Source: Escherichia coli
Lineage (GTDB): Bacteria > Pseudomonadota > Gammaproteobacteria > Enterobacterales > Enterobacteriaceae
Reading direction: 5' to 3' (one strand)
Assembly (NCBI RefSeq): GCF_041248615.1
Contig: NZ_CP158426.1
DNA length: 64,000 nt
A program made the position numbers and the translations under genes. The notes beneath the pieces are model-generated. The model had not been told where the DNA came from and made no database searches. It saw only the letters and a list, made by a program, of their open reading frames with translations. Below are positions 5,878-19,756 of the stretch, piece after piece (position 1 is the first letter of the stretch; every line of letters begins with the position of its first letter).

Positions 5878-5932
5878 GGTGATGCTGCCAACTTACTGAT
5901 TTAGTGTATGATGGTGTTTTTGAGGTGCTCCA

Positions 5933-6208
5933 GTGGCTTCTGTTTCTATCAGCTGTCCCTCCTGTTCAGCTACTGACGGGGTGGTGCGTAACGGCAAAAG
6001 CACCGCCGGACATCAGCGCTATCTCTGCTCTCACTGCCGTAAAACATGGCAACTGCAGTTCACTTACACCGCTTCTCAACCCGGTACGCACCAGAAAATC
6101 ATTGATATGGCCATGAATGGCGTTGGATGCCGGGCAACCGCCCGCATTATGGGCGTTGGCCTCAACACGATTTTCCGCCATTTAAAAAACTCAGGCCGCA
6201 GTCGGTAA
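5933..6208 (+). CDS. insA: IS1 InsA (91 aa, transposition repressor / N-terminal part of the transposase)
   Basis: [43 protein letters not shown] with zinc-finger cysteines. Confidence 0.97.
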
Positions 6209-6630
6209 CCTCGCGCATACAGCCGGGCAGTGACGTCATCGTCTGCGCGGAAATGGACGAACAGTGGGGATACGTCGGGGCTAAATCGCGCCAGCGCTGG
6301 CTGTTTTACGCGTATGACAGGCTCCGGAAGACGGTTGTTGCGCACGTATTCGGTGAACGCACTATGGCGACGCTGGGGCGTCTTATGAGCCTGCTGTCAC
6401 CCTTTGACGTGGTGATATGGATGACGGATGGCTGGCCGCTGTATGAATCCCGCCTGAAGGGAAAGCTGCACGTAATCAGCAAGCGATATACGCAGCGAAT
6501 TGAGCGGCATAACCTGAATCTGAGGCAGCACCTGGCACGGCTGGGACGGAAGTCGCTGTCGTTCTCAAAATCGGTGGAGCTGCATGACAAAGTCATCGGG
6601 CATTATCTGAACATAAAACACTATCAATAA
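6127..6630 (+). CDS. insB: IS1 InsB frame (transposase C-terminal part; InsAB' is made by -1 frameshift)
   Basis: 167-aa ORF in the -1 frame overlapping the insA 3' end; slippery AAAAAAC at 6184-6190. Confidence 0.95.
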
Positions 6631-6645
6631 GTTGGAGTCATTACC

Positions 6646-14136: not shown

Positions 14137-15300
14137 GTGGAACAGATTAATTCAAATAAAAAACATTCTAACAGAAGAAAATACTTTTCTTTATTGGCGG
14201 TAGTTTTATTTATTGCGTTTTCAGGTGCCTATGCCTATTGGTCAATGGAATTAGAAGACATGATTAGTACAGATGACGCCTATGTCACGGGGAATGCAGA
14301 TCCAATTTCTGCACAAGTTTCAGGCAGCGTCACTGTCGTTAATCATAAAGATACGAACTACGTTCGACAGGGTGACATTTTAGTCTCACTGGATAAGACT
14401 GATGCCACTATCGCACTCAATAAAGCTAAAAATAATCTGGCCAATATTGTTCGGCAAACGAATAAACTGTACTTACAGGATAAACAATACAGTGCCGAAG
14501 TCGCTTCAGCACGTATTCAGTATCAACAATCTTTAGAAGATTATAACCGTCGTGTACCTTTAGCGAAGCAGGGGGTTATTTCAAAAGAAACGCTGGAGCA
14601 TACCAAAGATACGTTAATAAGTAGCAAAGCGGCATTGAATGCTGCTATTCAGGCTTATAAAGCGAATAAAGCTTTAGTAATGAACACACCATTAAACCGT
14701 CAGCCACAAGTCGTTGAAGCGGCGGATGCAACCAAAGAAGCCTGGTTGGCGCTTAAACGTACGGATATTAAGAGTCCGGTTACCGGCTATATTGCCCAGC
14801 GAAGTGTTCAGGTCGGCGAAACAGTGAGTCCCGGACAATCGTTAATGGCTGTCGTACCGGCACGTCAAATGTGGGTTAATGCTAACTTTAAAGAAACACA
14901 ACTCACGGATGTACGGATTGGTCAATCGGTCAATATTATCAGCGATCTTTATGGTGAAAATGTTGTGTTTCATGGTCGGGTGACAGGGATCAATATGGGA
15001 ACCGGCAATGCGTTCTCCTTATTACCTGCACAAAATGCGACAGGGAACTGGATCAAAATCGTTCAGCGTGTACCGGTTGAAGTTTCTCTTGATCCAAAAG
15101 AACTCATGGAACATCCCTTACGTATTGGTTTATCGATGACAGCAACTATTGATACGAAGAACGAAGACATTGCCGAGATGCCTGAGCTGGCTTCAACCGT
15201 GACGTCCATGCCTGCTTATACCAGTAAGGCTTTAGTTATCGATACCAGTCCGATAGAAAAAGAAATTAGCAACATTATTTCGCATAATGGACAACTTTAA
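14137..15300 (+). CDS. emrK: multidrug efflux periplasmic adaptor EmrK (387 aa, GTG start)
   Basis: HlyD/EmrA-family ORF with N-terminal TM anchor; stop overlaps the emrY start (TAATG). Confidence 0.92.
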   Translation: MEQINSNKKHSNRRKYFSLLAVVLFIAFSGAYAYWSMELEDMISTDDAYVTGNADPISAQVSGSVTVVNHKDTNYVRQGDILVSLDKTDATIALNKAKNNLANIVRQTNKLYLQDKQYSAEVASARIQYQQSLEDYNRRVPLAKQGVISKETLEHTKDTLISSKAALNAAIQAYKANKALVMNTPLNRQPQVVEAADATKEAWLALKRTDIKSPVTGYIAQRSVQVGETVSPGQSLMAVVPARQMWVNANFKETQLTDVRIGQSVNIISDLYGENVVFHGRVTGINMGTGNAFSLLPAQNATGNWIKIVQRVPVEVSLDPKELMEHPLRIGLSMTATIDTKNEDIAEMPELASTVTSMPAYTSKALVIDTSPIEKEISNIISHNGQL

Positions 15301-16838
15301 TGGCAATCACTAAATCAACTCCGGCACCATTAACCGGTGGGACGTTATGGTGCGTCACTATTGCATTGTCATTAGCGACGTTTATGCAAATGTTGGATTC
15401 CACTATTTCTAACGTCGCAATACCGACAATATCTGGCTTTCTGGGAGCATCAACAGACGAAGGCACCTGGGTTATCACCTCGTTTGGCGTAGCAAATGCC
15501 ATTGCGATCCCTGTTACCGGCAGGCTGGCACAAAGAATAGGCGAATTAAGATTATTTTTACTTTCAGTCACTTTTTTTTCGCTGTCTTCCTTAATGTGTA
15601 GTTTATCGACCAATCTTGATGTGCTGATATTTTTTAGAGTCGTTCAGGGATTAATGGCGGGGCCGTTAATTCCACTGTCACAGAGTTTATTATTAAGGAA
15701 TTATCCACCAGAAAAAAGAACATTTGCTCTGGCATTATGGTCTATGACCGTGATTATCGCGCCGATATGTGGGCCGATATTGGGCGGTTATATTTGTGAT
15801 AACTTTAGCTGGGGTTGGATATTTTTAATCAATGTCCCTATGGGGATTATCGTCCTGACATTATGCTTAACCTTACTTAAAGGAAGAGAAACTGAGACTT
15901 CACCGGTCAAAATGAATCTACCAGGACTGACCCTGTTAGTGCTCGGTGTTGGTGGCTTGCAAATTATGCTCGATAAAGGGCGCGATCTGGATTGGTTCAA
16001 CTCGAGTACAATAATAATACTAACAGTAGTGTCAGTTATTTCTCTGATCTCTTTAGTCATTTGGGAGTCGACCTCAGAGAATCCGATTCTTGACCTCAGT
16101 TTGTTTAAGTCCCGTAATTTCACCATTGGTATTGTGAGTATCACATGCGCGTATTTATTTTACTCTGGGGCAATAGTCCTTATGCCGCAATTACTCCAGG
16201 AAACGATGGGGTATAATGCGATATGGGCCGGACTTGCCTATGCGCCCATCGGCATCATGCCGCTATTAATATCGCCTTTGATAGGACGTTATGGCAACAA
16301 AATTGATATGCGGTTGTTGGTGACATTTAGTTTTTTAATGTATGCGGTTTGCTATTACTGGCGTTCTGTGACATTTATGCCAACGATTGATTTTACAGGC
16401 ATCATTTTGCCACAGTTTTTCCAGGGATTCGCCGTCGCCTGTTTCTTTTTACCCTTAACAACGATTTCGTTTTCAGGTTTGCCAGATAATAAATTTGCCA
16501 ATGCCTCGAGTATGAGTAATTTTTTTCGTACCTTGTCAGGATCAGTTGGTACGTCGTTGACAATGACGCTGTGGGGACGACGCGAATCGTTACACCATAG
16601 TCAGTTGACAGCAACCATCGATCAATTTAACCCCGTGTTTAATTCATCGTCACAAATTATGGATAAATACTATGGTTCGCTTTCAGGGGTTCTTAATGAA
16701 ATTAATAATGAAATAACTCAGCAGTCACTTTCAATTTCTGCAAATGAGATTTTCCGTATGGCGGCTATTGCTTTTATCTTACTTACGGTTTTGGTTTGGT
16801 TTGCGAAACCGCCGTTTACAGCGAAAGGCGTTGGGTGA
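15300..16838 (+). CDS. emrY: MFS multidrug efflux pump EmrY (512 aa, 14 TM)
   Basis: 512-aa EmrB-like MFS transporter ORF. Confidence 0.93.
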   Translation: MAITKSTPAPLTGGTLWCVTIALSLATFMQMLDSTISNVAIPTISGFLGASTDEGTWVITSFGVANAIAIPVTGRLAQRIGELRLFLLSVTFFSLSSLMCSLSTNLDVLIFFRVVQGLMAGPLIPLSQSLLLRNYPPEKRTFALALWSMTVIIAPICGPILGGYICDNFSWGWIFLINVPMGIIVLTLCLTLLKGRETETSPVKMNLPGLTLLVLGVGGLQIMLDKGRDLDWFNSSTIIILTVVSVISLISLVIWESTSENPILDLSLFKSRNFTIGIVSITCAYLFYSGAIVLMPQLLQETMGYNAIWAGLAYAPIGIMPLLISPLIGRYGNKIDMRLLVTFSFLMYAVCYYWRSVTFMPTIDFTGIILPQFFQGFAVACFFLPLTTISFSGLPDNKFANASSMSNFFRTLSGSVGTSLTMTLWGRRESLHHSQLTATIDQFNPVFNSSSQIMDKYYGSLSGVLNEINNEITQQSLSISANEIFRMAAIAFILLTVLVWFAKPPFTAKGVG

Positions 16839-16890
16839 TGGTAAAAAGAGAGAGCTATAGCAGGTAAGACGGTAGAATCTTAAGTCTGCG

Positions 16891-16940
16891 CCATCGGCAG
16901 CATCGCTCACCCAGGGAAAGGATGGCGATGCTGCGTTGAA
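16891..16940. terminator. stem-loop between convergent emrY and dsdA
   Basis: cagcatcgc ... gcgatgctg inverted repeat flanked by ccatc/gatgg. Confidence 0.4.
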
Positions 16941-16943
16941 ACG

Positions 16944-18275
16944 TTATGAACGGCCTTTTGCCAGATATTGCTCCATCTCTTCTTCCGGCACCATTCCACC
17001 TCCCGTCGCCCACACCAGATGAGTGGCATTACGCAGTTGTTCTGCGCTGAAACCGTGCATCTGTTGGTAACTTACTGATGCGCACACGCGCTGAGGCCCG
17101 GCCATACCCGCCAGTGCCGAAGGTTCAAGACGAATACCTTCTTCCTGCGCCAGCCAGCCAAGCATGTCATACATGGTTTGATCGCTAAGGGTATAGAAGC
17201 CATCCAGTAGACGCTCCATTGCCCGCCCGACAAAGCCTGATGCGCGACCAACTGCAAGGCCATCCGCTGCGGTAAGGTTGTCGATACCAATATCCTGAAC
17301 AGAAATCTGATCGTGTAATCCTGTATGGACGCCTAGCAGCATACAAGGGGAGTGCGTTGGTTCGGCAAAAAAGCAGTGAACATGATCGCCAAATGCCAGT
17401 TTAAGCCCGAATGCGACGCCACCAGGACCACCGCCAACACCACACGGCAGATAGACAAACAGTGGGTTATCAGCATCGACAATACGACCTTGCTCGGCAA
17501 ATTGCGCTTTAAGACGCTGGCCTGCGACGGAATACCCAAGGAACAACGTGCGGGAATTCTCGTCATCAATAAAGAAACAGTTCGGGTCAGACTGCGCTAC
17601 TTTACGTCCTTCCTCGACGGCAACACCATAATCTTGCTCATATTCCACGACCGTAACGCCATGGCTGCGCAGTTTCGCTTTTTTCCATGCCCGGGCATCA
17701 GCAGACATATGTACTGTCACCTTAAAGCCAATGCGGGCGCTCATAATGCCGATTGATAACCCCAGATTTCCGGTTGAGCCCACAGCAATGCTGTATTGAC
17801 TAAAGAACTGTTTAAACTCCGGAGAAAGCAGTTTGCTGTAGTCATCTTCAATCGTCAGCAACCCCGCTTCCAGAGCCAGTTTTTCTGCATGTGCCAGGAC
17901 TTCATAAATCCCGCCGCGTGCTTTTATGGAGCCGGAAATGGGCAAATGGCTATCTTTTTTCAGTAGCAGTTGCCCGCTGATCGGTTGTTGATATTCCTTT
18001 TCCAGCCGTTTTTGCATAGCCGGAATGGCAACCAGTTCTGATTCAATAATCCCCCCAGTAGCAGCAGTTTCAGGAAATGCTTTTGCCAGATAGGGTGCAA
18101 AACGGGATAAGCGCGCATGGGCGTCCTGAACATCCTGTTCGGTCAGGCCAACATAAGGTAAACCTTCAGCCAATGAGGTCGTGCCAGGATTAAACCAGGT
18201 GGTTTCTTTAAGAGCAACCAGATCCTTTACCAACGGATACTGGGCGATGAGCGAGTTCATTTTAGCGTTTTCCAT
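16944..18275 (-). CDS. dsdA: D-serine ammonia-lyase (D-serine deaminase), PLP-dependent
   Basis: 443-aa [34 protein letters not shown] with PLP-lysine motif SGSIKARGG. Confidence 0.95.
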
Positions 18276-18292
18276 AGTACGTCTCTTTGCGC

Positions 18293-18520
18293 TTAGATGA
18301 TAAATGACAGCAGGAATGTGCCCGCCAGAGCGACGACTGAAGCGATAAATGTCGCGGTCGTATAGTATTTAAATGTTTCATTGAGCGTAGCGTCGCAATA
18401 TTGCTTCACCAGCCAGAAAAGCGAGTCCGTAACGATCGTGCAGCCAATCGCACCTGAACCGATAGCAATCGCAATAATTTCCGGGCTGATGTCGGGATAC
18501 AGCGGCAGCACAATGATCCA
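18293..18520 (-). pseudogene. dsdX: dsdX D-serine permease (GntP family), 3' fragment only (~72 codons)
   Basis: Minus-strand frame encodes a GntP-family C-terminal TM segment ...[59 protein letters not shown]; in-frame stop at 18524-18526, no upstream dsdX sequence, cscR begins ~230 bp further on. Confidence 0.8.
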
Positions 18521-18753
18521 TATTTATATTTTCTTCTCCAGATTGGCGATGCCAGTTGGCATGTTTTACCTACTTGCCTACATGGTTACTCGTTGGCGAG
18601 AACAGAGGCGGAATTGGGTACAATTGTCCGGGAATTATTGTTATTTTTTATTGTATTGCCGTGTCGGGTGATAGGGCGTCGAGAATATCGTTGGATCTCG
18701 CCAGTGACGTCTGTTTCTGCTACAGTGCCCGTTTTACGGCAAACGGCTTGGGT

Positions 18754-19749
18754 ATGGCTTCATTAAAGGATGTCGCACGCCTGGCGGGAGTGTCGATGAT
18801 GACAGTCTCCCGGGTGATGCATAATGCAGAATCTGTGCGTCCTGCAACGCGTGATCGCGTATTGCAGGCAATCCAGACCCTGAATTATGTTCCTGATCTT
18901 TCCGCCCGTAAGATGCGCGCTCAAGGACGTAAGCCGTCGACTCTCGCCGTGCTGGCGCAGGACACGGCCACCACTCCTTTCTCTGTTGATATTCTGCTTG
19001 CCATTGAGCAAACCGCCAGCGAGTTCGGCTGGAATAGTTTTTTAATCAATATTTTTTCTGAAGATGACGCTGCCCGCGCGGCACGTCAGCTGCTTGCCCA
19101 CCGTCCGGATGGCATTATCTATACAACAATGGGGCTGCGACATATCACGCTGCCTGAGTCTCTGTATGGTGAAAATATTGTATTGGCGAACTGTGTGGCG
19201 GATGACCCAGCGTTACCCAGTTATATCCCTGATGATTACACTGCACAATATGAATCAACACAGCATTTGCTCGCGGCGGGCTATCGTCAACCGTTATGCT
19301 TCTGGCTACCGGAAAGTGCGTTGGCAACAGGGTATCGTCGGCAGGGATTTGAGCAGGCCTGGCGTGATGCTGGACGAGATCTGGCTGAGGTGAAACAATT
19401 TCACATGGCAACAGGTGATGATCACTACACCGATCTCGCAAGTTTACTCAATGACCACTTCAAATCTGGCAAACCAGATTTTGATGTTCTGATATGTGGT
19501 AACGATCGCGCAGCCTTTGTCGCTTATCAGGTTCTCCTGGCGAAGGGGGTACGTATCCCGCAGGATGTCGCCGTAATGGGCTTTGATAATCTGGTTGGCG
19601 TCGGGCATCTGTTTTTACCGCCGCTGACCACAATTCAGCTTCCACATGACATTATCGGGCGGGAAGCTGCATTGCATATTATTGAAGGTCGTGAAGGGGG
19701 AAGAGTGACGCGGATCCCTTGCCCGCTGTTGATCCGTTGTTCCACCTGA
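18754..19749 (+). CDS. cscR: LacI-family sucrose operon repressor CscR (331 aa)
   Basis: Product begins MASLKDVARLAGVSMMTVSRVMHN (helix-turn-helix) at the internal ATG 18754, followed by a periplasmic-binding-protein-like sugar-binding domain; the longer upstream ORF start is rejected. Confidence 0.9.
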   Translation: MASLKDVARLAGVSMMTVSRVMHNAESVRPATRDRVLQAIQTLNYVPDLSARKMRAQGRKPSTLAVLAQDTATTPFSVDILLAIEQTASEFGWNSFLINIFSEDDAARAARQLLAHRPDGIIYTTMGLRHITLPESLYGENIVLANCVADDPALPSYIPDDYTAQYESTQHLLAAGYRQPLCFWLPESALATGYRRQGFEQAWRDAGRDLAEVKQFHMATGDDHYTDLASLLNDHFKSGKPDFDVLICGNDRAAFVAYQVLLAKGVRIPQDVAVMGFDNLVGVGHLFLPPLTTIQLPHDIIGREAALHIIEGREGGRVTRIPCPLLIRCST

Positions 19750-19756
19750 TATTATG

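Follow-up and report, generated by a model that had tools for sequence, protein, structure and literature searches.

Between emrY and the tRNA gene argW, the window (the whole 64-kb stretch of DNA that was analyzed) carries a full-length D-serine ammonia-lyase gene, dsdA, a short remnant of the permease gene dsdX, and the four genes of a sucrose locus, cscRAKB (Table 1). The left side beyond dsdA reads emrY, emrK, evgA, and evgS, as in K-12.

Table 1. Features of the emrY-argW interval, with positions counted from the first letter of the window.
Feature	Position	Strand	Description	Basis
emrY	15300..16838	+	EmrB/EmrY family; conserved left flank, convergent with dsdA	Family match; annotated emrY in NZ_LT599825.1; same neighbor in K-12
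dsdA	16944..18275	-	D-serine ammonia-lyase, 443 aa	TIGR02035 profile and K-12 alignment
dsdX remnant	18293..18510	-	Last 72 codons, K-12 DsdX residues 374-445	NF007395 and K-12 homology
Breakpoint	18510..18511		Border of dsdX-derived and csc-derived DNA; minus-strand sequence ...AAATATGGATCATTG/TGCTGCCGCTG...	Cross-genome comparison
Intergenic region	18511..18753		csc-specific, upstream of cscR	Unlike the K-12 dsdC-dsdX control region
cscR	18754..19749	+	LacI-family sucrose repressor, divergent from dsdX'-dsdA	LacI-family matches, annotation
cscA	19757..21190	-	Sucrose hydrolase (invertase)	TIGR01322, 477 bits; annotation
cscK	21406..22329	+	Fructokinase	NF006957, 506.8 bits (cut-off 450)
cscB	22391..23638	+	Sucrose:H+ symporter (oligosaccharide MFS transporter)	TIGR00882, 594.6 bits
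DUF4942-domain ORF	23718..23900	-	60 aa, between cscB and argW	RefSeq annotation only
argW	24080..24154	-	tRNA-Arg(CCT)	ARAGORN

The dsdA product matches the whole of the D-serine ammonia-lyase profile TIGR02035/NF002823 (positions 1-431 of 431) with 810.8 bits, against a cut-off of 368.25, and is the same as K-12 DsdA at 436 of 442 residues with no gaps. The SGSIKARGG motif is kept in this alignment and includes Lys118, which we take to be the PLP-binding lysine. The stop region (16944-16949) has a TAA to TCA change by which the product gains one C-terminal serine; among the 12 dsdA genes compared, the change is otherwise found just in isolate CNREC_004-43. Going by the full-length profile match above the curated cut-off and the conserved SGSIKARGG, the dsdA of the window is a complete D-serine ammonia-lyase gene.

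Directly upstream of dsdA on the minus strand, the six-frame ORF list has a 72 aa ORF (18293-18511), and the native 17-nt dsdX-dsdA spacer is retained between the two. The DsdX model NF007395, 445 positions long, matches this ORF over positions 374-445 only, with 144.2 bits against a cut-off of 618. The ORF falls short of a full-length GntP-family permease and is, as judged by this match, a remnant rather than a transporter. Near-identity to K-12 DNA extends from where dsdA starts, across the spacer and the 3' end of dsdX, to position 18510, where the homology ends abruptly. Searches of the 64-kb window with K-12 queries (tblastn and blastn) found no dsdC, no dsdC-dsdX intergenic region, and nothing of DsdX residues 1-384 beyond the overlap with the stump. 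A gapped "microhomology" of 9 nt appeared in a MAFFT alignment of the breakpoint and was judged to be due to chance. The initial annotation of this DNA had described dsdA as intact, dsdX as reduced to about 72 codons, and dsdC as absent, and all three descriptions are borne out: the ORF of dsdA is full length at 443 aa, 72 is the exact number of dsdX codons, and K-12 dsdC matched nothing in the window. The end coordinate that it gave, 18526, belongs to the in-frame stop codon at the upstream limit of the open frame, whereas the boundary of homology is 18510.

All four csc genes are full length by family match. They are ordered R(+), A(-), K(+), B(+), in a segment that shares 99-100% identity with annotated csc loci. 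cscA is encoded on the same strand as dsdA and is convergent with cscR, with 7 nt between the two stops. The small DUF4942 ORF is probably what is left of an element that had integrated at argW, a known hotspot of integration and recombination that bounds a variable island (PMC4366372, PMC11251922). The closest public genome, NRZ14408 (NZ_LT599825.1, in which window position 1 corresponds to record position 1600001), is 100% identical to the window except for one deletion. The window is without 3,671 bp of that record (1605878-1609548), which hold the 5' end of ypdI, yfdX, frc, and the 5' part of oxc, and this absence removes part of an oxalate/acid-resistance cluster. An IS1 element interrupts oxc at window positions 5878-6645 (left junction 5877/5878), and the missing block stops exactly at the inverted repeat of this element, GGTGATGCTGCC. 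The absence has the appearance of an adjacent deletion mediated by IS1 or of a difference between assembly versions, and the DNA may thus come from a variant of the NRZ14408 genome.

The replacement of dsdCX by csc genes has been described in E. coli EC3132 and O157:H7 EDL933 (Jahreis, 2002; Moritz and Welch, 2006, both as cited in PMC4366372 and PMC7486766). The mutual exclusivity of sucrose and D-serine use is older still (Alaeddinoglu and Charles, 1979, as cited in PMC4366372 and PMC11251922). The csc-type allele of EC3132, EDL933/TUV93-0, and E. coli W sits in the same place as the locus in the window, between emrY-dsdA and argW. It shares the gene order and strands, dsdA(-) dsdX'(-) cscR(+) cscA(-) cscK(+) cscB(+), as well as the absence of dsdC, the 219-nt dsdX remnant, and the breakpoint sequence. 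By its position, the absence of dsdC, the dsdX breakpoint, and the complete cscRAKB, the locus is, at the sequence level, the csc-type (EC3132/EDL933) allele. Its differences from O157:H7 are allelic only: 97% identity across the junction, the extra C-terminal serine in DsdA, and two SNPs in the stump. These SNPs (18393, TTGCGG to TTGCGA; 18356, CGACAG to CGACCG) are private to the window among seven csc-type genomes and fall where a weak dsdA promoter has been reported. As far as can be judged, the isolate is a clinical NRZ strain rather than an EHEC. Compared with the intact dsdCXA locus of K-12 and CFT073, dsdA, the spacer, and the last 72 dsdX codons are collinear and ~98-99% identical, next to the same emrY flank, whereas dsdC, the dsdC-dsdX control region, and dsdX codons 1-373 are replaced by ~5.1 kb of csc DNA. 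The K-12 emrY-argW interval contains dsdA-dsdX-dsdC and, between dsdC and argW, the CPS-53 prophage. The arrangement in the window is real, was read correctly, and has long been known.

Of 5426 complete E. coli genomes, 2686 (49.5%) cover a 301-nt probe spanning the junction over its full length, and 2646 cover at least 80% of the 7.7-kb emrY'-dsdA-dsdX'-cscRAKB-argW segment. In the intact-locus genomes among the matches listed, the probe match ends at query position 131, which is window position 18510. We inspected six junction-bearing genomes, namely O157:H7 F7386, O104:H4 2009EL-2071, a pig isolate, a porcine isolate, and two human stool isolates. All six have a full-length dsdA and a 219-nt dsdX remnant annotated as partial, followed by cscR and cscA, and in every inspected example RefSeq labels the stump a partial permease pseudogene. 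This annotation, together with the number of genomes in which the probe is fully covered, argues that the junction is neither a chance finding nor an assembly artifact. The breakpoint sequence is the same in seven genomes (the window and these six) of differing lineages, which points to one ancestral event, since inherited and exchanged. Because about half of the complete genomes carry the junction, the arrangement is an ordinary one. The initial annotation had likened it to that of some csc-positive pathogenic E. coli; the D-serine phenotype of such strains is indeed published, but the arrangement is not peculiar to pathogens. That nearly half of the complete RefSeq genomes share one breakpoint goes slightly beyond the textbook statement.

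The expression of dsdA in this setting has been studied in EHEC. In EDL933, dsdC is lost and dsdX is truncated by cscBKAR; EHEC does not grow on D-serine and is strongly inhibited by it in minimal medium (O'Boyle et al., 2020, PMC7486766). D-serine enters by other carriers, CycA and SstT, and the variants of EHEC that tolerate it have either a block in uptake or deletions upstream of dsdA (PMC7486766). These deletions measure 1,120 bp, from the 3' end of cscA to the 5' end of cscR, and 5,637 bp; the shorter one raised dsdA expression 33-fold (PMC7486766). Reporter fusions placed the reactivated dsdA under the cscA promoter, with an enhancement by the loss of CscR, and the wild-type arrangement gave a low signal (PMC7486766). 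The same work placed a weak dsdA promoter ~115 bp before the ATG, a position within the part of dsdX that is retained (PMC7486766). A 2026 study likewise found EHEC dsdA to be intact and not induced (PMC13012123). Beyond EHEC, csc takes the place of dsdCX in most dsd-negative strains (Connolly et al., 2015, PMC4366372). A study that types both alleles by triplex PCR, also from 2026, found D-serine use to track the dsd-type locus strictly (PMC13054288).

We scanned window positions 16700-21500 for promoters and terminators. At the scan threshold, no sigma-70-like site was detected upstream of dsdA on the minus strand, including 18511-18753, and a search by eye for the reported dsdA promoter in 18380-18430 gave no convincing hexamers. 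The matches of the scan were about as numerous as chance would give, so its negative result carries no weight. According to the initial annotation, inducible D-serine catabolism would be lost, which is what we would expect and which agrees with published strains of the same arrangement (PMC7486766, PMC4366372, PMC13054288). It had also proposed that any dsdA transcription would have to be read-through from upstream. This came close, in that deletions that join dsdA to the cscA promoter reactivate it, but it needs to be amended on two points (PMC7486766). The neighboring cscR is divergent, so that read-through into dsdA can come only from cscA, antisense through cscR. A weak internal promoter has been reported, so dsdA transcription need not all be read-through. 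Read-through from cscA was effective in O157:H7 only after deletions that removed cscR (PMC7486766). Most likely, then, the dsdA of the window is silent or barely expressed, and D-serine entry would continue by other carriers in the absence of dedicated uptake. Because of this entry through CycA and SstT, the phenotype to be expected is sensitivity and not only non-utilization. By analogy with the strains above, the isolate should be sucrose-positive, should not grow on D-serine, and should be inhibited by it.

The history of the locus may be pictured as follows. An ancestral recombination would have put cscR-cscA-cscK-cscB in the place of dsdC, of the promoter from which DsdC drives dsdX, and of codons 1-373 of dsdX; the last 72 dsdX codons and, beside emrY, an intact dsdA would have stayed behind. 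With DsdC and the promoter it acts on both gone, dsdA would not be induced by D-serine and would have low basal expression only, as O157:H7 suggests. Such a silent dsdA could come back into use through deletions that eliminate CscR and bring the gene under the control of the cscA promoter. We consider it very probable that this explanation holds as a whole, i.e., that the locus is a csc-type allele of the argW-dsd island with an uninduced dsdA in a D-serine-sensitive strain; what it says of function is carried over from work on O157:H7 and other strains.

The orphan dsdA might instead have been kept by selection for a role independent of DsdC, either low constitutive detoxification from the internal promoter or an expression coupled to sucrose by read-through from cscA. 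If this were true, the csc-type allele would represent regulatory rewiring and not simple loss, but we regard it as unlikely. The coupling to sucrose can be set out in full: sucrose would lift CscR, and transcripts from the cscA promoter would cross cscR in antisense into dsdX'-dsdA, so that the deaminase would be co-expressed with the sucrose genes. The shared strand of cscA and dsdA and the short distance between the cscA and cscR stops are in keeping with such a path. The scan returned no terminator-like site on the minus strand from 19757 to 18330, although, with 5 terminator-like matches in 16700-21500 against 4.6 expected by chance, it is uninformative on read-through. The read density over dsdA in O157:H7 followed that of cscA after cscR had been deleted, and a clean cscR deletion conferred tolerance to D-serine (PMC7486766). 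Against this stand the low fluorescence of a reporter with the wild-type arrangement (cscA promoter to dsdA codon 6) and the sensitivity that wild-type EHEC still displays (PMC7486766). The ~1.2 kb of untranslated antisense RNA facing the convergent cscR would be a likely target of Rho termination. Phenotype surveys consistently found csc-type strains to be D-serine-negative (PMC13054288), and the literature cited here on csc-type strains reports no effect of sucrose on dsdA. Expression of dsdA coupled to sucrose in this way thus seems quite improbable to us.

The opposite fate, in which the orphan dsdA is dead and heading for decay and is intact in the window by chance, would be easy to understand in a gene that has lost its activator and main promoter and that is silent in EHEC (PMC7486766). 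The dsdA genes themselves argue otherwise. We aligned window positions 16947-18275 with 11 other loci; all seven sampled orphan dsdA ORFs are full length, as are the five from intact loci. The mean pairwise dN/dS was 0.053 for the orphans (n=7), which we judged to be no higher than the 0.041 of the intact loci (n=5), although alleles are exchanged between the two locus types, so that the comparison is confounded and its evidence weak. At least 80% of dsdA is covered in 5377 of the 5426 complete genomes, and an EHEC dsdA mutant had a raised basal activity of the recA promoter (PMC13012123). Decay is therefore very unlikely in our view. The orphans show no sign of it in this small sample, an observation that again goes slightly beyond the textbook statement.

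In the same alignment, the alleles of orphan and intact-locus dsdA interleave: one nucleotide separates the O104:H4 orphan from the K-12 gene, and the allele nearest to the DCE7 orphan is one from UPEC. This indicates that csc and dsdCX cassettes have repeatedly been exchanged by homologous recombination and were not inherited strictly clonally. The crossovers of these swaps evidently lie in or near dsdA, to judge from the aligned alleles. Recombination with functional alleles could keep dsdA intact without direct selection, and because of the exchange, direct selection and rescue by recombination are inseparable in the dN/dS test.

Second copies of the dsd genes do occur in E. coli. Some genomes have two or three dsdA places, e.g., IAI39 and Ch1, and K1/NMEC strains such as CE10, which share the variable island of the window, carry two copies of dsdCXA (PMC7486766; Moritz and Welch, 2006, as cited there). 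We therefore looked for a further copy by counting megablast places per record, a search that detects copies down to ~85% identity and in which NRZ14408 is assumed to stand for the source genome. Unlike in the two-copy K1/NMEC genomes, a second dsdA, a dsdC, or a dsdX 5' part was not detected in NRZ14408, the chromosome of which has dsdA in a single place. A chimeric query of cscR-cscA and K-12 dsdC-dsdX5' found two places in this genome and at first suggested a second copy. It was rejected, since the csc part alone also finds two places; the extra place is thus related to csc and not to dsd. Across the genome collection there are 10 plasmid places whether or not dsdC-dsdX5' is included in the query; by this count, dsdC and the dsdX 5' part are missing from every plasmid of the collection. 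The initial annotation had named a complete dsdC-dsdX elsewhere as the finding that would speak against its reading, and none was detected in NRZ14408 by megablast or in the 64-kb window. That the strain is still D-serine-positive through a second complete dsdCXA, as in many K1 strains, is hence scarcely credible and largely refuted by the single dsdA place of NRZ14408, the lack of any added place for K-12 dsdC-dsdX5', and the absence of such matches from the plasmids and the window. The second place in NRZ14408 matches cscR-cscA-cscK5' of the window (18527-21500), and most csc-type genomes have only one; it may be another sucrose locus such as scr.

We return to the reading of the locus as a csc-type allele with an uninduced dsdA. 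The dsd/csc switch at argW is well established as a marker of niche preference in E. coli (PMC4366372). The ability to use D-serine goes with urinary and meningitic strains, and the use of sucrose together with sensitivity to D-serine goes with intestinal and LEE-positive ones; carriage of the LEE and of dsdCXA is nearly exclusive (PMC4366372). The locus described here adds no new biology to this picture, and what it predicts is an isolate that would be sucrose-positive and D-serine-sensitive.
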